From Nitrospirota bacterium (GTDB taxonomy: Bacteria; JACPQY01): a DNA stretch of 64,000 nucleotides. The notes under the pieces were generated by a model that did no database searches, was not told where the DNA came from, and saw nothing but the letters and a program-made list of their open reading frames with translations. Position 1 is the first letter of the stretch, and every line of letters starts with the position of its first letter. Of the stretch, positions 19,126 to 29,347 are shown piece by piece. The stretch lies in NCBI GenBank assembly GCA_016180645.1, contig JACPAV010000002.1, positions 300,628-364,627 of the forward strand, written 5' to 3'. A program made the position numbers and the translations under genes.

Positions 19126-20256
19126 ATGATTTACCTTGACCACAACGCCACAACGCCCGTGTTGCCGGAGGTACTTGAGACGATGATGCCCTACTTCACC
19201 AAGGAATGGGGCAACCCCTCCAGCAGCTACAAATTCGGATCCAAATTGAAAACCGTGATCGAGCAGGCGCGGGAGCAGGTAGCTCAACTGATAGGCGCGC
19301 ACCCAATGGAAATCATCTTCACCTCGTGCGCCACGGAGAGCAACAACGCGGCGATCCATGCAGTGCTCAAAGCCAATCCGGGCAAGCGGCACATCATCAC
19401 GTCATCTGTGGAACATTCGTCGGTGCTCAACTACTGCAAGGCACTGGAGAAGGATGGTTATCGCGTCACGTATCTGCCGGTGGATCGCGAAGGGCTGATG
19501 AAGCCGGCGGATTTGGAGACTGCGATCACCGGCGAAACGGCCATCGTCTCATTGATGTGGGCGAACAACGAGACGGGGGTGCTGTATCCGGTGAAAGAAA
19601 TCGCGGAGATTTGCCGGTCCCGCGGGGTATTCTTCCACTGTGATGCGGTGCAGGCAGCGGGCAAAGTGGAAATCGACGCACGAAAAGCGCCCTTAGACTT
19701 CCTTTCACTGACAGGCCACAAATTTCATGCGCCGAAGGGCATCGGGGCGTTGTACATCCGCCGAAAGGCGCCGTTTTCACCTCTCATCGTTGGTGGGCAT
19801 CAGGAGCGACGTCTGCGCGGGGGAACCGAGAGCGTCCCGTTGATCGTTGGGATGGGCAAGGCGGCGGAGTTGGTGGGCAAGAGTCTGCCCGCCTACGACA
19901 AGAGAGTCGGGCCGTTGCGTGATGCGTTGGAGGCCGGGATCCTTGGGTCAATTCCTTACGGGGAATTGAATGGGCATAAGACCTTCCGTTTGGCGAATAC
20001 CACCAACCTCACATTCAGAGGAATCGAATCGGAGGCTTTGCTTTTGCTGCTCGATCAGGAGGGAATATGTGCCTCATCGGGATCGGCCTGCCTTGCCGGG
20101 TCGGACGAACCTTCGCACGTCGTCAAGGCCATGAAGCCCGATTCCTCCGCTTCCCGTCAGATGATCCGATTTTCGCTGGCCCCTTCGAATACGTCCGATG
20201 AGGTATCGGCAGCCGTCGGGGCCGTGCTCCACGCTGTCACCGATTTGCGGGGCTGA
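19126..20256 (+). CDS. dndA: Cysteine desulfurase (IscS/NifS class; probable DndA)
   Basis: YLDHNATTP, GNPSS, NNETG, DAVQ, PLP lysine in TGHKFHAPKG, catalytic SSGSAC; lies inside the island with dndCD. Confidence 0.8.
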   Translation: MIYLDHNATTPVLPEVLETMMPYFTKEWGNPSSSYKFGSKLKTVIEQAREQVAQLIGAHPMEIIFTSCATESNNAAIHAVLKANPGKRHIITSSVEHSSVLNYCKALEKDGYRVTYLPVDREGLMKPADLETAITGETAIVSLMWANNETGVLYPVKEIAEICRSRGVFFHCDAVQAAGKVEIDARKAPLDFLSLTGHKFHAPKGIGALYIRRKAPFSPLIVGGHQERRLRGGTESVPLIVGMGKAAELVGKSLPAYDKRVGPLRDALEAGILGSIPYGELNGHKTFRLANTTNLTFRGIESEALLLLLDQEGICASSGSACLAGSDEPSHVVKAMKPDSSASRQMIRFSLAPSNTSDEVSAAVGAVLHAVTDLRG

Positions 20257-20266
20257 CTTCTCTCTC

Positions 20267-20599
20267 ATGAAACTTCCGGCGGACACGGTGATCGCCCCCG
20301 AGAAGGTGACGCGATACCTGCTTGTACAGTATGCCCGTGGCGACAAGTCAAAGTTTCTGGCGGCGGCAGGCTATTCTCTCGAAGACCCTGACAGGCTCCT
20401 CCACGATCTCCGCGCGCAGATTCTCCCGTTGGAGGCAACGGCCGTGGAATCGAATCAGTTCGGGGAATATTTTGAAATCCGAGGCACGCTGACCGGCCCC
20501 AACGGCGTAACGTTGGCTATCCGAACCATCTGGCTCAAGGAACGTTTGTCCGGCGCCACGAAATTCGTTACACTAATTCCAGACAGGCGGAAAAAATGA
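20267..20599 (+). CDS. DUF6883-like putative toxin (copy 2)
   Basis: MKLPADTVIAPEKVTRYLL...DKSKFLAAAGY...FVTLIPD; paralog of 5597-5923. Confidence 0.7.
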   Translation: MKLPADTVIAPEKVTRYLLVQYARGDKSKFLAAAGYSLEDPDRLLHDLRAQILPLEATAVESNQFGEYFEIRGTLTGPNGVTLAIRTIWLKERLSGATKFVTLIPDRRKK

Positions 20600-20838
20600 C
20601 GGAATTGACATTGTACAGAGATGCCGTGCTCACGGCCGACCTGCCCAAGCATGGCCTCAGGCGTGGCGATATCGTCAAATTGGTGGACCACCATGTTGCT
20701 CCAGATGGGACGGAGGGTTACTCCATCGAGGTGTTCAATGCCGTGGGCGACACCATCGCCGTCACCGCCGTTCCAGCCGCTTCGCTCGAACCCCTAAGCG
20801 AGAACGAAATCCTCTGCGTCCGCCCCCTCGCCGCGTAA
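20596..20838 (+). CDS. DUF4926-like protein (copy 2)
   Basis: DLPKHGLRRGDIVKLVDHH...GYSIEVFNAVGDTIAV; paralog of 5920-6162. Confidence 0.75.
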   Translation: MTELTLYRDAVLTADLPKHGLRRGDIVKLVDHHVAPDGTEGYSIEVFNAVGDTIAVTAVPAASLEPLSENEILCVRPLAA

Positions 20839-21443: not shown

Positions 21444-21556
21444 ACCTCCCGCATAACGCCGCGGTTCACGCGCGCCAAGGGGGAGTGGCACAATCGGGGT
21501 ACATTCAAAACCACGCTCTGGCGGAATTGCGAGATCCGCGCTGTCGGGGGGAATCG

Positions 21557-21817
21557 GGGGACGCCATACTTATTTGTGAATTGAGTACGGTATCCCGGGA
21601 ATCCAGACCGTATCGAGCCATCGAGAGAATGCTCACAATCACGTTGTCGGGATCAGCCTTGTCCGTGCTGCCCCACGGAGTGTCAGAACACGCCGGACTC
21701 AAAGTATCAACCCCCATGCGCCATGCCAGCCGCCGCGAAATGTCCTGTGTCTAGAGTTGACCCCACTGCCCGCTAGAGTTGACCCCACTGCCCGCATCAA
21801 CCCCCATGCCTGACCCC
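21557..21817. repeat. Cluster of REP-like elements of both GGGG..CCCC families
   Basis: ggggacgccatac..gtacggtatccc (21557-21596); tcaacccccatgc twice; 22-bp tandem ctagagttgaccccactgcccg x2. Confidence 0.75.
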
Positions 21818-21852
21818 CGCCAGCCGCCGTTGATTTCACCTTCACCCGCAGA

Positions 21853-22851
21853 TCAGGGAAATAGCACCTCCGAAAAGGATGGGAAGTATCGATACACCTC
21901 CGCATATCTCTTGACATCCGATTCAGGCACGCCGGGCACGCGCAGTTTTCCTGAGGATATCTTGGGCAACTGCGAGTTAAGATGACGAATTTCTTTCGGC
22001 GTCAGACAGGGCGCCTTTATGTGGCAAGGATCGGAACTGGCGCGAATGAACGGCAACGTATCAAAGTTGCACTCTAGGAATTTCTGCTCCTCTTCCGCAC
22101 GGAAAAAGATTCCACCGACCGTAACCATCTGGGCTCCATCCTTGTAGCGGAAGTGAAATAGTTGCCGATATTGGACCTTTTCATTCAGCGGAAGCATTGA
22201 ATTTCGCAAAGATATTTGCTCGGAAATTACGTTATCAATGACCTTGCGAAACACGCTAGCAAGCCCTTGACCACGCAAGTCAGTTCCAGAAGTGCCAGCC
22301 GGCAGTTGCCCCCCCAAAAGCTCCTTGGCGATACGCAGGCGATACTCGTCGAGATCGAACGTTTTGCCAGTTTCCTTTTCATACGTTTCGCGATCCTCCT
22401 TGGCTGGCTCGGCGTCTGGGTGTGCGTTTACGGTGACTACCAACGAACTGCCGCTGGCCGCACGCAGACAGACGGTTGCGATATCCCCCAATATTCCAGT
22501 ATCAAGACGATTCTCGTAGTCCAACCATGCGATGGTGCGACGCCGCCAGTCTATTGTAGGCAGAACCTCACCAGAGTTTGCAAACTTCAATTGTATGCAC
22601 CGGTAAGGGCGGTTGAATCGGAAGCAGGCTCTCGACGACGTTTCTTTTTCAATACTCAGCATGTTGGTTATGCCGAGTTCGCGATGGAGGAGTTGGAAAT
22701 CGCTGAAGTAGATGGAGCCAAATCCCACGTAGCGGTATTCCTGAATCCGCTGGAAGGGATGCAGACGTTCGAACGCCGCACACAGCATCCTCCGTTCAAT
22801 CGCCTTTCCCGGACGCAGTGCATAGTTGATGATTCGGAAGCTGTCCGACAC
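21853..22851 (-). CDS. Putative SAM-dependent methyltransferase-fold protein (Methyltransf_35-like)
   Basis: INYALRPGKAIERRM, YRYVGFGSIYFSDF, MLSIEKE, IAWLDY; GTG overlaps the GHKL stop by 1 nt. Confidence 0.6.
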   Translation of the reverse strand: MSDSFRIINYALRPGKAIERRMLCAAFERLHPFQRIQEYRYVGFGSIYFSDFQLLHRELGITNMLSIEKETSSRACFRFNRPYRCIQLKFANSGEVLPTIDWRRRTIAWLDYENRLDTGILGDIATVCLRAASGSSLVVTVNAHPDAEPAKEDRETYEKETGKTFDLDEYRLRIAKELLGGQLPAGTSGTDLRGQGLASVFRKVIDNVISEQISLRNSMLPLNEKVQYRQLFHFRYKDGAQMVTVGGIFFRAEEEQKFLECNFDTLPFIRASSDPCHIKAPCLTPKEIRHLNSQLPKISSGKLRVPGVPESDVKRYAEVYRYFPSFSEVLFP

Positions 22852-24215
22852 TATTCTTCCCCTTCGGCTTCGTAGCGCATGAAATATTCGAACGTTTTCT
22901 CCCCAACGCCAGTGAAGGTTTTCGATTTAAGAATCAGCTTGGCTCTCTCAACCTCACTCGCAGGCTTCCAGTATTGAATTCTACACATTCTCGGCCCGGC
23001 AGCGGCGGGAGCCATTGACGGAGCTACGAAATTACCCCCACGCTTAATCATGTTGACCTGTTTCGAGTCGGCGGTCTCGATTGCATTTTCGAGGGGATGT
23101 TGGCCCTCACCGGCAGTCTTTTCCTTGACAAGATTAGTTAGAAAAGTCAGTACCGGCCTGGTCATCTCGATCATCTCGCGCTGGACAGCCTTGTAGACGG
23201 GGGAGTCGGCGTCCACTCCGGTTTTCGTCGTTGTCCAAGGCAGCAAAGAACCATCATCAGAGTCGAGATAAGCGTAGCCACGAAAATAGGCAAAATCAGG
23301 ATGGTATGCCCGCATGTTGTGACGATTCCCCCAGACTGTTGCGTCTGATTGGTCGGCGCGCAATATTAGGCGTCCGTTGCAGAAGACATACCAGCCGCCA
23401 TCGTGGAAGCTACGCTCCGCAACGCCAGCATATAGCCTTACTCGCACCGGCGGGCCCGGCTTACCTACGAGTATTTTGCTCGGATAAGACTTCTCCACAT
23501 AGCCGGGCTGCAACATCTTCGAAACAAAAAGCTCCTGCGGATCATGCTTGATCGGCAGACCGTTCAAGGTGATGGCAAGCTCGCGATCCAAAGTTAAGGG
23601 GTGAGCTTGGCTCATCTCCTCTGCAAGCCTGCTCTTAAAGTTATCCAATGCGAAAGTATCCGCAACATTCGCCAGGAGCCGGTCGACCTCGATGCGCGTG
23701 CCGGTGTCCTTCTCCGGAACGTGCAAACCAGTCTCTAGTTCACTGAAAGTGAAGTGCCACTCCTCGGGAGATTGGGCATCAGCCATCCATTGATCCACAT
23801 CGACATCCACCGTGAATCGCGCCTCCCTTGTTGTCGAGCGCACGACAAAATGGCGTCCAAGCCTAAAGAAGGTCCGCTTCATGCCTACTCCGAACTGTCC
23901 CATTGAGCCAGGGGTGCCCTCAGTTTCTTCTGGCCGCCCAAAGCGAAATGCGTAGCCGCGTGCGACATCAACGGGAATTCCGCCACAGTTATCGGCAATG
24001 AGAAAATGCCTAGCATCCAGTTTCATTTCCACCCTTAGCCCGCCATAGTTGCCAGCGGGACGAAGTCTCCGTGCTCCGTCCACCGAATTATCTACGAGAT
24101 CAAGAATGGCTCGCGTTAGCGGGATGTCCCTTGTGAGCATGTGAATGAAGAATTCCTTTGTTGGAGACGCATTGATGAGCTTCTGCCCACCTTGGGAGGA
24201 TGAAGTAGGTGCCAT
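22851..24215 (-). CDS. GHKL (MORC/MutL-like) ATPase
   Basis: DLVDNSVDG (N box), DNCGGI (G1), GQFGVGMK (G2), S5-like GWYVFCNGRLI. Confidence 0.85.
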   Translation of the reverse strand: MAPTSSSQGGQKLINASPTKEFFIHMLTRDIPLTRAILDLVDNSVDGARRLRPAGNYGGLRVEMKLDARHFLIADNCGGIPVDVARGYAFRFGRPEETEGTPGSMGQFGVGMKRTFFRLGRHFVVRSTTREARFTVDVDVDQWMADAQSPEEWHFTFSELETGLHVPEKDTGTRIEVDRLLANVADTFALDNFKSRLAEEMSQAHPLTLDRELAITLNGLPIKHDPQELFVSKMLQPGYVEKSYPSKILVGKPGPPVRVRLYAGVAERSFHDGGWYVFCNGRLILRADQSDATVWGNRHNMRAYHPDFAYFRGYAYLDSDDGSLLPWTTTKTGVDADSPVYKAVQREMIEMTRPVLTFLTNLVKEKTAGEGQHPLENAIETADSKQVNMIKRGGNFVAPSMAPAAAGPRMCRIQYWKPASEVERAKLILKSKTFTGVGEKTFEYFMRYEAEGEE

Positions 24216-24219
24216 GCGT

Positions 24220-25701
24220 CTACCTCCCCCCATCACGCCAGAATTGGCGGGCTGGGCCGGTGATGAGCTTGCCTTGCAAGCGCAGAGCGGCTTCGGCTTT
24301 CGTGAGTTTCTGATGAACCACACCGCCGAGGATCATTCGTTGTTCGGCGTCTTTCAGCGTGTGCGGCGAGAAGTGGGCTCCGCATTCGGCCAACTCGGCG
24401 AAATTGGTATCGTTGGCGCCCGGCGTCAGGAATTTATCGGCGTCCTGCGAAGCCAGCCAGACGGGGAAGCCCCATGATCGACCCTGCCTCGCGAGCAGGC
24501 TCAGCAGGCCGGCCTTGCTCTCCTTCGGCAGAATCAGATGCGCTTCATCCACAAATAGCACCATCTTGAGAGGCTGGATGTCATTCTTCACGGCCAGTTG
24601 CCGGCTCAATTTCTTGATGAGGAAGTTCAGAATGAGGGCGGCCGACAATGCCTTCGTATCGTTGTCCGTCCCGAACTCCTTGAAATCGATGACCAGGGAA
24701 CCATTCAACCATTCCTCCGGGGTGATCGCGGTCCGGGCGGAGGCGAACAGATTGAACCGCTCGATCTTTTGAACGATGCGCTGTTCAACACCCTCCGTGC
24801 CGCTGTTCACGAGCTCCGCCGACAAGGACGCGAAATCCGGTTCGGCGAGTCGCTGGTAGCAGTCGCTGAGATTGCCCTCCTGTCTAGCGCCGAGTTGCGG
24901 CGCGAAGCATCGGATAAGGCCCGCCATCTCGTAGGCAACCTGGGCATTCTGTGTTGGGTTCTGATGGCGGTAGAGTGGGTTGATCGGCAGGCTCTGCTGG
25001 ATCAGGCGGACATACCGCGCGCCGGTCTGTTCCAGGAAGCGCCTGCGATTCTCCGTCTGCCTTGCGTCCTTGGGATTGTCTTCAAGCTCGCCCTTCATGT
25101 CGAAAAACACGAAACGAACGCCACCATTCGCCGCTTGCGCCAGGAGGTCGAGCGCAAGCTGGCTCTTGCCGCTGCCGGGTTGACCGGAAATCACCAGCAA
25201 GCCGTTGTTCGTGCCCGGACCGTTTACCGACCATTCCGGACCGTCCGTCAATACTTTCAATTTCACTTCGGTCTCGACCACCGGCATCGGTCGAGCGACG
25301 GGCTCCGCGCCGGGAAGCCCAGACTCGCCACTCGCCAAACGCAAGAGAGACGCCACGAACCGGGCCTGATCGTTCCCCGATTCCGACCATATCTGCCCCA
25401 AGCGTTGGCAGCCAAACTCAAAGTGACGACGAAACTCCTGCCGGTACCCGGCTTCGTCGAGGGTCCGTCCGGCCCGGTGGTTCAATGCGGCGCGGACCAG
25501 ATCCCGGAGATCATCGCCGACAACCTGCTCGTCATTCAGCGTCACGCCTTTGGAGTCCTTGGGTTTGTACTCGGTGGGCACGCCCTGCCCCAGAGCGAGG
25601 AAGAGCGCCGCGCGTCCGACAATCGCCTGATTCCGCGCGCCGACGCGGGCAAAGACGTTCTCGATGAACTCGTGAGCTTCGCCGCTGGTCTCGAATTTCA
25701 T
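24220..25701 (-). CDS. DndE-like domain fused to a HerA/FtsK-type P-loop ATPase
   Basis: N-terminal ~120 aa: AIVGRAALFLAL...DSKG..L....VG...FRRHFEFGC (DndE-like). C-terminal: GQPGSGKS, FVFFDMKGE, LFVDEAH, RQGRSWG, LASQ. Confidence 0.75.
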   Translation of the reverse strand: MKFETSGEAHEFIENVFARVGARNQAIVGRAALFLALGQGVPTEYKPKDSKGVTLNDEQVVGDDLRDLVRAALNHRAGRTLDEAGYRQEFRRHFEFGCQRLGQIWSESGNDQARFVASLLRLASGESGLPGAEPVARPMPVVETEVKLKVLTDGPEWSVNGPGTNNGLLVISGQPGSGKSQLALDLLAQAANGGVRFVFFDMKGELEDNPKDARQTENRRRFLEQTGARYVRLIQQSLPINPLYRHQNPTQNAQVAYEMAGLIRCFAPQLGARQEGNLSDCYQRLAEPDFASLSAELVNSGTEGVEQRIVQKIERFNLFASARTAITPEEWLNGSLVIDFKEFGTDNDTKALSAALILNFLIKKLSRQLAVKNDIQPLKMVLFVDEAHLILPKESKAGLLSLLARQGRSWGFPVWLASQDADKFLTPGANDTNFAELAECGAHFSPHTLKDAEQRMILGGVVHQKLTKAEAALRLQGKLITGPARQFWRDGGR

Positions 25702-25964
25702 GGGCCTTTTCCTTCCCGAACAAGCCGCTGCCCTGTGGGAGAGGCCCAAAAAGCTGCGAGAACGCCGTCGCGGAATTCTTCGTAAACCCCTCGATCAGCC
25801 TCAAGCATCTTGGCTGCCTTTCGCGCAGCGCGGCGAAACTCAGCCGCAGTTTGCCAGTCCAGCGTACTGTGAAATATCTCGTTGCGCATGATCTCTTCAA
25901 TCATCCCTGCGTCCACCGGACTGCAACCCGTAGCTTCGATGATGTCTTCAGCGTAGCCGCTCAT
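25698..25964 (-). CDS. Hypothetical protein (88 aa) in the dnd operon
   Basis: AAGGAGG RBS upstream; ATGA-coupled to the downstream DndE-ATPase gene. Confidence 0.7.
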   Translation of the reverse strand: MSGYAEDIIEATGCSPVDAGMIEEIMRNEIFHSTLDWQTAAEFRRAARKAAKMLEADRGVYEEFRDGVLAAFWASPTGQRLVREGKGP

Positions 25965-25982: not shown

Positions 25983-28046
25983 TTACAGGTCCTTTCCGAA
26001 GTAGTCGCTTGTGATGCGCACTTCGTAGTTCGGGCTGTCGGGTCTGCCATGCGGGTGCAACGTGTAGGCACGCGCAAACCGGCCACGGGCGCGGTCAAAC
26101 AGCGGTCCATCCGGATCAATCTCAGCATTCGTGCTGAGGATGATGGACTGGTGGCCGCTGAGGTAAAGCCGGTCGAGCACGTTGGCGCGGACTTCTTTGT
26201 CGAGGCGGGCCAGTGGCGTGTCCACAACCAGCGGCGGAACGAGCTTGGCCAGACGACGCAGGGCTTCGTAGAACGCCAGCATTCGCACCTGTCGCTGACC
26301 GGCGGACGTGTTCGTTTCCTCCCAGGTAACTTTCCTGCCATCCCGGCGCACGAGCCAGCATTGCCAATGGCCGTCAAAGTCCATGCCCTCGAACTCCCGC
26401 TCCCGCTCGGTAATTTCCACCCACAACTTGCCGACTTCCTCGGAGAGCTTCCGCCGCATCAGAATTGCGGCTCGGCTGCGAATCTCGCCGGCGGCCTCGC
26501 GGTAGCGGGTCGCCATCGCCGCCAAACTTTCGCCCCGCTTGGCACGTTCGGCAATTTCCGACTGCGTCGTCTCCTGGCGTTTCAGATCCACAAGCTCAAC
26601 CTCAAGACGCGCGATTTCGGCATCAATATCCTTCAGTCGTTTGGAGATTTGATCGCGGCGAGTGATGAGGCCGCCCCGCTTTTCGTGGAGTTCCACGCCT
26701 CGTTTGTACGCCGCCGTGTTTTGTTGCATCTGTCTCAGCTTCTGGTTCAACTCGCGTAGCTCAACGTCCATTCGGTCGATCTCCGCACACCTGTCCGATA
26801 GGTCGCGAATATCGCTCTGGTTCAGGGCAAGCTGTCGGCGAATCTGCGCACTCGTGTCGTTGCGGTCGGCAATGTAGATGCGGTCGGGCATCCCTTGCGG
26901 TGGTGGATGGAACAGGCTGTGGAGAGCGTCTTCCAATCGCTTCATGTAGAAGGATTCGACATCAGGTTGGAGCTCGAATTCCTTGGGAACACCACCAAAC
27001 ACGTCCTGCTTTACCTGCGGAATCTTCGGCTCGACCGTGGACTTGGCGCTTTCCCACTCGCGACGACGTTCCTCGGATAGCAAAGCGCCATGCAATTCCT
27101 TGCAGTAGACCCCAAGCAACGAGACCGGTAGAGCCAACTCCCAAGCTTCTGTGAGTCTGGCTTCGAGTTTGGCTTTGGCCCCTGTAAGTTCGCCGCGGCG
27201 TTCTTGAGCTCTCTGCAACTCATCGGGGTCGACTGCTCCAAGCGTTTTCAAGTCGTCTTCGACTTCAACCAGTTCGGCTTCGACTTCTTTCAAGTCGCGG
27301 TCAAGGGTTTCGCGTTCAAGATGTCTGACCTTCAAGTTGCCCTCCACAGTCCTCACCTTGCTGTTCAACTCGTTGAGGGTCGTCAATGGGTCAGGGCCGC
27401 CGGTGGAATTGAACACGCGTGGGATCTTCGAGCTGATCAGTTGACGGAGATCGTTTTCCAGTTCGGCATAGGCCTGAAGGCCAAGGATTCGACTCACGCC
27501 TTCAACGATGTCCTGCTGTCCCAAGTTGATGGCCTGGCTGCGCTCAGCATCGAAAAAGAAGAACCGCGCCAGATGGCGCGGCAGGAAAGCGTCCCGAAGT
27601 TTGTGTATCTCTTGTTCGTCTTGGATGGTGCCCGGCTTGTCGGACCGTGTGGCATGATGCTCCCAGACTGGCGCCGAGTTGGAGCGGAACCGCACTTGGC
27701 GAAGGATCTCCACTTTCCGACTGCCCACTTTGTCATCGCGGAGACTCACCACCGCCTTGAGACGCACTAAGTCTTTACCTTCAGACAGTGCATGCCGATT
27801 GAGCGACTTCTCGAAGGTGAACCGCGTCGCATCTGACCCAGTCTCCACCTTCTTCAAGTCGCCGACGCCGCTCTCGCCGACCACCGCAAGATATAGGGCG
27901 CGCAGCAGGTGAGTTTTTCCGGCACCATTCTTTCCGCCCACGATAACGCCACACTTGCCCTCAAGACTTCGGAAGTCAACGGTGTGCTCGCCGTAGAATG
28001 GCCCAAAGTTCTCCAGCGTTAGTGAGTCGATATGGACTTCCGCCAT
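25983..28046 (-). CDS. dndD: DNA sulfur modification SMC-like ATPase DndD
   Basis: GGKNGAGKT, FFFFDAE, long coiled coil, SAGQRQ, VVDTPLARLD, QSIILSTNAEI; directly follows dndC. Confidence 0.88.
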   Translation of the reverse strand: MAEVHIDSLTLENFGPFYGEHTVDFRSLEGKCGVIVGGKNGAGKTHLLRALYLAVVGESGVGDLKKVETGSDATRFTFEKSLNRHALSEGKDLVRLKAVVSLRDDKVGSRKVEILRQVRFRSNSAPVWEHHATRSDKPGTIQDEQEIHKLRDAFLPRHLARFFFFDAERSQAINLGQQDIVEGVSRILGLQAYAELENDLRQLISSKIPRVFNSTGGPDPLTTLNELNSKVRTVEGNLKVRHLERETLDRDLKEVEAELVEVEDDLKTLGAVDPDELQRAQERRGELTGAKAKLEARLTEAWELALPVSLLGVYCKELHGALLSEERRREWESAKSTVEPKIPQVKQDVFGGVPKEFELQPDVESFYMKRLEDALHSLFHPPPQGMPDRIYIADRNDTSAQIRRQLALNQSDIRDLSDRCAEIDRMDVELRELNQKLRQMQQNTAAYKRGVELHEKRGGLITRRDQISKRLKDIDAEIARLEVELVDLKRQETTQSEIAERAKRGESLAAMATRYREAAGEIRSRAAILMRRKLSEEVGKLWVEITEREREFEGMDFDGHWQCWLVRRDGRKVTWEETNTSAGQRQVRMLAFYEALRRLAKLVPPLVVDTPLARLDKEVRANVLDRLYLSGHQSIILSTNAEIDPDGPLFDRARGRFARAYTLHPHGRPDSPNYEVRITSDYFGKDL

Positions 28047-28048
28047 GA

Positions 28049-29347
28049 TTAGGCCTTCTTCTCTGCCTCCTGTTTCGCCAAATCGTCTTTCAAGATGAAG
28101 AGCAGATCGTCCGGGAGGCCGTGGGCGCGGTGGCTTTCGCTGTATTCCTCCACCTTGGCAAGCATCCGACGGAGCGTGTCGGTGTTGATCCCCTTTTCCC
28201 GGGCGATTTCGTCCTCCAGCTCCCGAAGTTTGTTGAGTTCCTTCAGATCCGTGCTCATCATGACACCTCGCTGTTTGTTGAGGATACGGGCGACGCCCCG
28301 GCCGTCATCGGGATCGCGCGCGGCCTTCCACATTTGTTGGATCAAGAGGAGCTCCTCGGAGGCTATAATGGGCAAACGGGTTTCCTCCTGCAACGCGAGC
28401 AATCGGGCCAGCAACTCACGCCGGGCCTCAATGTGCAAAGGCCCCGGGCCCTTGTCGCCATTCATCCGTTTCATGTCGCGCTTGCCGTTGGCGGGGTCGC
28501 GGTAGAACTGTAGGGTTTCTCGAAATTCGATGAGCTTCTCCATCCGCTCGTCGCCGGCGGCCAGCAGCCCCTCACTGGCTTTGTCGCGATCCACCACGGT
28601 GCAGGTCCAGCAGCCGAAGCGGGAGTTGCCGCAGCTTGGAGTGCTGGTGTCGATCTGAATGGGACATTCACCGTTGGAGGCGCTGGAGTAGAGTTTGTAT
28701 AGTGCGCGGTTGTCGCCACCCCAGGGGTTCGGCGTTTGGAGGAGATAGGCCCAAACTTCCTCGGTGGTCAGGTATTCGATTGGATTGGAGACCCACACGC
28801 GCGGCAGGTCCGGGTGACGGCGCAAGCCGTTGCGGGTCTCGATACCCGCCATTGTTTGCGCCCGAGTTGCGCTTTCCTCCCGCCGCGCCCCCAAATGCAG
28901 GATGGCATCGCCCCAGTGTCCTATCCGTTTCTTTACAAAGTCATTTACCGGATCTATCTTCATCCGCTGAGTACACCAACGAAAGGTGCGATTGGGAGGG
29001 GGGTATCCACGCCCGATGATGTTGACCCAGAACGATTGTTCGGCCGGGGGTTTCAGGAGGTGGGCTTCGAAGTTCAACTCGTTCTGGCTGGAGAACTTCC
29101 TCATTTTGTCGAGCGTGCCCTCTACCATCCCGACGATGGCCGGGATTTCCACGCGCGTGTCCGTACAGAGGAGATTGATCGGCTTCTTGCGATTTTCCCT
29201 GGGGATGGACGCGACCGCGTCGAAGAGGAGCGAGGCCAGCATGGTGCTGTCCTTCCCCCCGCTGAATCCGACGAGCCACGGACGAGGATCCTCGATGTAG
29301 AGGCGGCTGAGGGATTCGCGAATTTCTTGATATCCGCCGGTCACCAC
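28049..29347 (-). CDS. dndC: DNA phosphorothioation sulfurtransferase DndC (PAPS reductase family)
   Basis: PWLVGFSGGKDS, DTRVE, IGRGYPPPNRTFRWCTQRMKI, ECP...TPSCGNSRFGCWTCTVV. Confidence 0.93.
   Translation of the reverse strand: MVTGGYQEIRESLSRLYIEDPRPWLVGFSGGKDSTMLASLLFDAVASIPRENRKKPINLLCTDTRVEIPAIVGMVEGTLDKMRKFSSQNELNFEAHLLKPPAEQSFWVNIIGRGYPPPNRTFRWCTQRMKIDPVNDFVKKRIGHWGDAILHLGARREESATRAQTMAGIETRNGLRRHPDLPRVWVSNPIEYLTTEEVWAYLLQTPNPWGGDNRALYKLYSSASNGECPIQIDTSTPSCGNSRFGCWTCTVVDRDKASEGLLAAGDERMEKLIEFRETLQFYRDPANGKRDMKRMNGDKGPGPLHIEARRELLARLLALQEETRLPIIASEELLLIQQMWKAARDPDDGRGVARILNKQRGVMMSTDLKELNKLRELEDEIAREKGINTDTLRRMLAKVEEYSESHRAHGLPDDLLFILKDDLAKQEAEKKA

Follow-up and report, generated by a model that had tools for sequence, protein, structure and literature searches.

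A DndE domain fused to a HerA/FtsK-clade ATPase in a Dnd cassette of a Nitrospirota bacterium

Introduction

Canonical DndE is a free-standing chain of about 105-115 amino acids. Its hallmark is a tandem ribbon-helix-helix with an elongated H2b helix and a C-terminal helix, with a likeness to TraY (PMC10853773, section 13), and a compact 'clade-1' type is associated with DndD (section 14 of the same paper). DndH, of the DndFGH complex, is a protein of about 1700 amino acids that also carries superfamily 2 (SF2)-like, target recognition (TRD), inactive methylase and restriction endonuclease (REase) domains (PMC10853773, section 21). A further arrangement, in which DndE is fused to a 'clade-3' HerA/FtsK ATPase, has been stated by Rakesh, Aravind and Krishnan (Nucleic Acids Research 2024; PMC10853773, section 22). 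Here we describe such a fusion, encoded at positions 24220-25701 of a 64,000-nucleotide stretch of DNA, hereafter the window, from a Nitrospirota bacterium (GTDB JACPQY01; assembly GCA_016180645.1, contig JACPAV010000002.1, positions 300,628 to 364,627 of the forward strand). We conclude that the encoded protein is probably the DndE subunit of a DndA-C-D-E phosphorothioate (PT) cassette, with a ring motor of the HerA/FtsK clade permanently attached to it.

The DndE-ATPase fusion is already known, both in print and in databases, as a preliminary description of this stretch, made from the sequence alone, had guessed of comparative-genomics work. PMC10853773 cites Krishnan et al. (Nucleic Acids Research 2020) for the fusion and assigns some DndH proteins to the same HerA/FtsK clade-3. 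Because the fusion has been published and is annotated in public databases, the protein adds little as a discovery. It shares with the published fusions its architecture, an adjoining DndD-related ABC ATPase and a PT-modification neighborhood, and it does not differ from them in kind. In the available sections of the main text of PMC10853773 the fusion is given one sentence, with no mechanism, slot analysis or experiment, and the available passages of PMC11662687 (on DndI) and PMC8569181 mention no DndE fusion. The fusion is a widespread Dnd variant of environmental bacteria, known so far from sequence, that could show how DndCDE finds and selects its sites; a motor joined to DndE would provide a handle for active scanning and for PT feedback on the motor, comparable to that of DndFGH.

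Results

Translation of positions 24220-25701 on the minus strand yields an open reading frame (ORF) of 493 codons plus a stop, and the plus strand across the same range is riddled with stops. The preliminary description, which gave no strand, was correct in assigning the range to a single protein, and all of the motifs it quoted were located in the 493-residue translation. In the N-terminal domain these are RAALFLAL (residues 30-37), DSKGVTL (49-55) and FRRHFEFG (90-97), and in the ATPase the Walker A motif GQPGSGKS (173-180), FFDMKGE (199-205), the Walker B motif LFVDEAH (382-388), RQGRSWG (405-411) and LASQ (416-419). The ATG at 25701 overlaps the stop codon of an upstream ORF of 88 amino acids as ATGA and is well supported as the start of the fusion gene; because of this overlap, a longer ORF starting at a TTG at 25749 is unlikely. 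A word-indexed search scoring 8000 candidates returned 717 proteins related to the fusion protein at E <= 0.001, and the ORF is therefore no chance reading frame. The observation of a fusion protein is thus confirmed.

Residues 1-124 (25330-25701, minus strand) are a compact DndE of the DndD-associated type. Pfam family DndE (PF08870) matches residues 3-101 with 29.0 bits against a cut-off of 25 (E 1.4e-6), and the AlphaFold2 model of residues 1-125, based on a 21-row alignment, has a predicted local distance difference test (pLDDT) score of 92.1. DSSP assigns to this model a strand at residues 2-4, helices at 7-16 and 25-39, a 14-residue linker, a strand at 54-56, and helices at 57-77, 83-107 and 112-124, a layout of two tandem ribbon-helix-helix units with a long H2b helix and a C-terminal helix. 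The short loops fit the compact 'clade-1' DndE, on a reading of the predicted model and not of a tree. In a Foldseek search of the PDB with this model, the top ten matches listed are all solved DndE structures, with 7x4e at template modeling (TM) scores of 0.73/0.79 and a root-mean-square deviation (rmsd) of 2.4 Å, and 4lrv (TM 0.65/0.75) and 5wtu at TM scores of about 0.6-0.75. An exhaustive VIA-align comparison over 48,161 chains likewise gave DndE 7x4e at Z 13.8 (rmsd 2.2 Å, 107 residues aligned) and Escherichia coli DndE 5wtu at Z 11.1, followed by TraY at 8.6 and a drop to 5.1.

The domain therefore shares its fold (TM up to 0.79) with the stand-alone DndE proteins of E. coli B7A (4lrv/5wtu) and Natronorubrum bangense (7x4e) and, like canonical DndE, is paired operonically with DndD and DndC, whereas identity to these proteins is only 14-19% and the free-standing canonical chain bears nothing comparable to the 350-residue ATPase attached here. 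The tandem ribbon-helix-helix fold also occurs in TraY, of the F-plasmid relaxosome, but the match is weaker than that to DndE, and its context, conjugative nicking at oriT, is unlike the Dnd operon of the window. The preliminary description had proposed that the N-terminal domain of about 120 amino acids is DndE-like, an assignment that stands; a check for a total lack of DndE similarity in this domain found both profile and fold similarity. Residues 125-143 (25273-25329, minus strand) form a flexible linker, with pLDDT below 50 at residues 126-135 only in the whole-protein model (pLDDT 90.2, 45-row alignment). The linker had been called Pro-rich, which is a mild overstatement for four prolines among the 21 residues at 125-145.

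The C-terminal 350 residues (144-493; 24223-25272, minus strand) are a P-loop ATPase with intact catalytic residues, whose nearest solved relative is the motor domain of DndH. VIA-align aligned 326 of 373 residues with the DndH C-terminal domain (7es4), across model residues 144-490, at Z 36.7, rmsd 2.1 Å and 21% identity, and gave lower scores to the other solved motors (VirB4 26.6, HerA 22.4, TrwB 20.8 and FtsK 16.9). Foldseek also placed the DndH C-terminal domain first (E 5.8e-15), and Pfam AAA_10 matches the fusion protein above its cut-off. A phmmer search of PDB sequences with the whole protein returned only the HerA-like YjgR (E 0.0018).

Conservation was assessed in 45 full-length family members, down to about 20% identity, comprising the query, five relatives from the word-indexed search and 39 proteins from a clustered library, with fragments excluded. 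Residues G173, G178, K179, D201, G204, D385, E386 and Q419 are invariant in this set, and conservation is at least 90% at R405 and R408. In the model, the sensor glutamine Q419 ends the strand at 414-418 and R405 and R408 lie just upstream of it. This arrangement corresponds to the HerA/FtsK signature of an arginine finger before core strand 4 and a sensor-1 glutamine at the strand end (PMC10853773, section 21). The invariant motifs, together with Z scores of 16.9-36.7 to solved clade members, bear out the assignment of the ATPase to the HerA/FtsK/VirB4 clade made in the preliminary description. The protein is not a HerA in the strict sense: HerA_C reaches 20.5 bits against a cut-off of 22, and in the model the DndE domain and linker, and no N-terminal HerA barrel, precede the ATPase.

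The kinship with DndH stated in PMC10853773 is hence reproduced here by structure comparison, and the remark in the preliminary description that DndE and a separate restriction ATPase act apart elsewhere gains some substance, since the best match of the ATPase is the DndH motor. The fusion protein and the DndH C-terminal domain have the HerA/FtsK hallmarks in common, but the SF2-like, TRD, inactive methylase and REase domains of DndH are all absent from the fusion protein, and the PADLOC match to DndH covers only residues 330-429 (E 9e-4). In PADLOC the best match of the ATPase is instead mad8, of the MADS defense system (E 2.3e-17, residues 166-432). The similarity to MAD8 is restricted to the ATPase domain, the mad8 model having no counterpart of DndE. 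PMC13662399 describes MAD7-MAD8 as an ATPase-nuclease module, and the available passages of the MADS preprint contain no description of the domains of mad8.

The fusion is a property of the whole family, since 34 of the 45 members match Pfam DndE (best E 1.9e-15) and 35 match HerA_C; DUF87 is matched by 34. Among the matches listed from the word-indexed search (119 besides the query), relatives are 491-498 amino acids long and 74-81% identical at 99-100% coverage, and three are named 'DndE family protein' by NCBI. In a library whose entries are clustered at 50% identity, 268 clusters match at E <= 0.001, and many of these consist of fragments. A single scan over genomes representing species provided 47 related loci, with 68-80% identity to the fusion protein, labeled as Verrucomicrobiota, Nitrospirota, Acidobacteriota, Planctomycetota, several former Deltaproteobacteria, Actinomycetota, Lentisphaerota, Burkholderiaceae and Bathyarchaeia; most are metagenome bins in which single labels may be wrong, and several lie on contigs of 0.4-3.6 Mb. 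DndC was detected by tblastn in the same order as in the window in 45 of these loci, and DndD and NifS in 40 each, with NifS mostly convergent. A branch at 27-29% identity preserves the dndC-dndD-fusion order in all four of its full loci, indicating that the arrangement is old.

A quick maximum-likelihood tree was built from 42 rows, excluding eight loci matched only in part and including two distant representatives. On this tree the phylum label has to change 16 times, where 9 is the minimum, and none of 200 shuffles yielded as few. This distribution fits repeated transfer plus some vertical runs. No relatives of the fusion protein were found in a plasmid collection or among viral contigs. 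A set of 40 'relative' genomes contained no match, a result of little weight because all but one are related to the host at the domain level only. In an insertion comparison with one genome of the same family, enolase was not found and the other flanking gene was present only as weak paralogs. In some Verrucomicrobiota loci (L042 4851-10969, L043 5444-10960, and also L045, L046 and L047), the fusion gene is reduced to its ATPase part, beginning at about residue 173. Other genes stand in place of DndD and the DndE domain: L042 has an HNH endonuclease and a Ser/Thr kinase there, and L043 an HSDR_N-like protein and a DUF5131 protein. These loci look like decayed or rebuilt cassettes.

The DndE domain varies across the related loci together with DndD. 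Among the 31 loci that are fully covered by all four queries (16 were dropped), the DndE domain and DndD correlate in their identity to the window at a Spearman ρ of 0.86, compared with 0.47 for the ATPase and DndD and 0.42 for the ATPase and the DndE domain; these loci are mutually related, so the correlations are descriptive and no significance test is attached to them. Five loci (L025, L027, L029, L033 and L034) display the divergence most directly, with identities of 62-65% for the DndE domain and 58-60% for DndD set against 73-78% for the ATPase and 74-79% for DndC, and the two DNA-reading strands of the DndE domain occur as two co-varying versions. This pattern suggests that DndD and the DndE domain may constitute a swappable specificity unit inside the fused gene, and it agrees with the reported co-evolution of the DndD-DndE pair (PMC10853773, section 14). 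DndD has been described to bind DndE through its coiled coil-2 domain (PMC12193691, section 2.4). When DndD was co-folded with the DndE domain, the median ipSAE was 0.59, with 0.01 as the best of three controls. Among solved complexes, 58 of 80 attain the co-fold mark, compared with 2 of 110 mismatched pairs; scores of at most 0.60, however, belong to only 7 of the 80 solved complexes and to both of the passing mismatches. The three runs agree in at least 94% of contacts, with partner pLDDT of at least 82, and the co-fold lends weak support to a predicted contact between DndD and the DndE domain.

Among the Dnd genes, the fusion gene comes third in a compact minus-strand operon ordered dndC, dndD, 88-residue ORF, fusion, GHKL and Methyltransf_35. 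The first gene, dndC (28049-29347, minus strand), encodes a sulfurtransferase resembling 3'-phosphoadenosine-5'-phosphosulfate (PAPS) reductase that scores 375.1 bits against TIGR03183 (cut-off 290.4) and matches PADLOC DndC at E 3e-125. It is followed by a gene for a dndD-related, SMC-like ABC ATPase (25983-28046, minus strand; PADLOC DndD E 3.1e-60). Convergent with the operon lies a gene for a NifS/DndA-type cysteine desulfurase (19126-20256, plus strand; PADLOC DndA E 3e-145), whose scores against TIGR03235 (387 bits) and TIGR03402 (521.5 bits) are both just under the cut-offs. DndA, DndC, DndD and DndE are therefore all present together in the window, and the fusion protein is the sole DndE match in the genome, which is 97% complete. 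No DndB was found in this genome, nor in the slot downstream of the fusion gene in the window; DndB is not essential (PMC8569181). DndH likewise has no match in the genome, DndF and DndG not having been searched for.

Two further genes complete the operon. A GHKL ATPase of 454 amino acids with a MORC-like HATPase_c_3 domain (22851-24215, minus strand; Pfam PF13589, E 9.9e-9) starts at an ATG at 24215, 4 nucleotides past the stop of the fusion gene and with its own GGGAGG Shine-Dalgarno sequence, and the last gene (21853-22851, minus strand) encodes a Methyltransf_35 'putative O-methyltransferase' (Pfam PF20553, E 9.6e-103). No nuclease domain was detected in either protein. GC content is 0.52-0.55 at 21500-24000, which covers this pair, compared with about 0.58-0.61 elsewhere in the cassette and its flanks, a dip that is consistent with separate acquisition of the two genes.

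Three observations concern other parts of the window. The 88-residue ORF between dndD and the fusion gene (25698-25964, minus strand) has a strong GAAGGAGG Shine-Dalgarno sequence directly past the dndD stop, and tblastn finds matches to it, 44-80% identical, in 14 of the 47 related loci; it has diverged further than the neighboring genes and has no Pfam family above cut-off. Just downstream of dndA, a DUF6883 gene overlaps a DUF4926 gene (20198-20838, plus strand). DUF6883 lies close to NifS, or within about 0.6 kb of it, in seven of the 47 related loci and near two loci of the distant branch, and the two genes are possibly a toxin-antitoxin-like pair carried along with the cassette. No tRNA was found in the window.

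Across the 39 loci in which both ends are present, the slot from the fusion gene to dndA differs in content and ranges in length from about 0.1 to 4 kb. In 19 of these it harbors a protein of one BLASTP cluster, of which all three members scanned are DndB, preceded in most cases by a small unknown protein of about 150-230 amino acids. In eight loci, and in one more cut by a contig end, the slot contains the GHKL and Methyltransf_35 pair directly after the fusion gene, and throughout the related loci Methyltransf_35 always accompanies the GHKL gene. One related locus carries, between the fusion and GHKL genes, an extra protein of 525 amino acids with a class-I S-adenosylmethionine (SAM) methyltransferase domain (L001 7353-8930). 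A 330-residue protein is found in five loci, directly past a short DndB in three and with no DndB ORF in two. It was considered as a relative of Methyltransf_35, and comparison shows the two to be unrelated. One locus holds a lipase-like protein and an RNase T-like exonuclease.

Discussion

The DndE fold, the clade assignment of the ATPase and the presence of dndA, dndC and dndD together in the window favor a DndE subunit with a permanently attached ring motor. In the mechanism we propose, the DndE domain would dock on the coiled coil of DndD, holding DndC via DndD, and would read DNA with its two-stranded sheet, and the ATPase would assemble as a hexameric ring on double-stranded DNA. ATP-driven tracking would then move DndC and DndD along the chromosome, making the search for target sites an active one, and sulfur from DndA would be installed processively at those sites. 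The motor may also slow or disengage at sites already bearing PT, by analogy with DndFGH, whose ATP hydrolysis and translocation are reported to be repressed by PT (PMC11662687, Discussion). A link between the modification complex and a DNA translocase had also been put forward, as a possibility, in the preliminary description.

Several points weigh against a PT-modification subunit with its own motor. Ring formation, movement, PT formation and PT sensing by the fusion cassette are each inferred, and no experimental study of a DndE-ATPase fusion was found in full-text literature searches. Canonical DndCDE functions without such a motor. The N-terminal domain scores 16.9 bits against 71.85 for the NCBIfam equivalog of small stand-alone DndE (TIGR03184), and its profile returned DndE among PDB sequences at a non-significant E of 1.2; sequence evidence alone makes a modest case for DndE identity, which is settled by fold. 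The dndD product also falls short of its equivalog, with 162 bits under the TIGR03185 cut-off of 245.85, and because these cut-offs are missed the DndD-DndE pair is divergent from characterized systems. Furthermore, DndH, the nearest structural relative of the ATPase, is a restriction-side and not a modification-side protein, a relationship that fits a role in defense at least as well.

Such a role is the main rival explanation, although we consider it unlikely. The ATPase half would be a defense motor that, like the DndH C-terminal domain, tracks along unmodified invader DNA and is restrained by PT; the DNA would pass from it to whichever effector occupies the variable slot, here the GHKL and Methyltransf_35 pair, so that the fusion serves both halves of PT immunity. 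The DndH C-terminal domain leads the structural matches by 10 Z units, the published fusions share HerA/FtsK clade-3 with some DndH proteins (PMC10853773), and the best PADLOC match belongs to the MADS defense system. The absence of a DndH match from the genome, which leaves no classical restriction partner in view, also argues for this explanation, as do the differing contents of the slot between loci, a feature of defense islands, and the occurrence of the GHKL and Methyltransf_35 pair within a DISARM operon and beside Dcm and Vsr. Nevertheless, 19 of the 39 readable slots hold a protein of the cluster whose scanned members are DndB, a regulator, mostly accompanied by the small unknown protein only and with no nuclease recognized in the scanned representatives, and neither protein of the pair in the window has a detectable nuclease domain. 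The partner to which the ATPase is fused is, moreover, a modification subunit that co-varies with DndD. An extension of this explanation, which we regard as quite improbable, is that the cassette is a complete PT immune system independent of DndFGH, with a motor that senses PT, a two-gene slot that supplies an effector or a second mark, and DndD and the DndE domain as the specificity module. If this were true, the GHKL and Methyltransf_35 pair would be one interchangeable filling of the slot, and DndD and the DndE domain would be swapped, or would co-evolve, independently of the motor and DndC.

It is similarly doubtful that the ATPase is an assembly or switching NTPase that loads or releases DndCD, or replaces DndB, without being a processive translocase. 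The lack of DndB in the genome and in the slot of the window accords with this possibility, and several HerA/FtsK-clade proteins of defense complexes are scaffolds for partner enzymes, with solved HerA-Sir2 and HerA-DUF4297 complexes among the structural matches obtained here. Many related loci carry both the fusion and DndB, however, so the ATPase is no general replacement for DndB, and the family-wide conservation of the catalytic and arginine-finger residues is that expected of an oligomeric motor. Most improbable of all is a cassette that makes no PT and in which the DndD-DndE core recruits another modification, such as methylation by Methyltransf_35. DndDE cores can recruit cytosine methylases in place of PT enzymes (PMC10853773), and a gene with a methyltransferase fold is present in the operon, but DndC clears its curated equivalog cut-off, 40 of the 47 loci have a conserved DndA-type desulfurase beside the cassette, and the Methyltransf_35 gene is absent from most of them.

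The GHKL and Methyltransf_35 pair may be a fresher lead than the fusion, as it occurs in three different DNA-modification defense contexts with no function described. Literature searches found no paper on PF20553/Methyltransf_35 and none joining DISARM, GHKL and O-methyltransferase, the available text of PMC12839542 does not mention GHKL, MORC, O-methyl or DndE, and an Atlas search with the Methyltransf_35 protein returned only its own family. A copy of the pair with 30% and 28% identity lies within a DISARM operon on a Microvirga terrae plasmid (L050 4564-6978), and another, on pSymA of S. meliloti, is split by an IS66 element and located beside Dcm and Vsr (L051 1671-3056 and 6055-6816). A second GHKL and Methyltransf_35 pair, 31% identical, is present past dndA in one of the related loci (L008 16415-18702).

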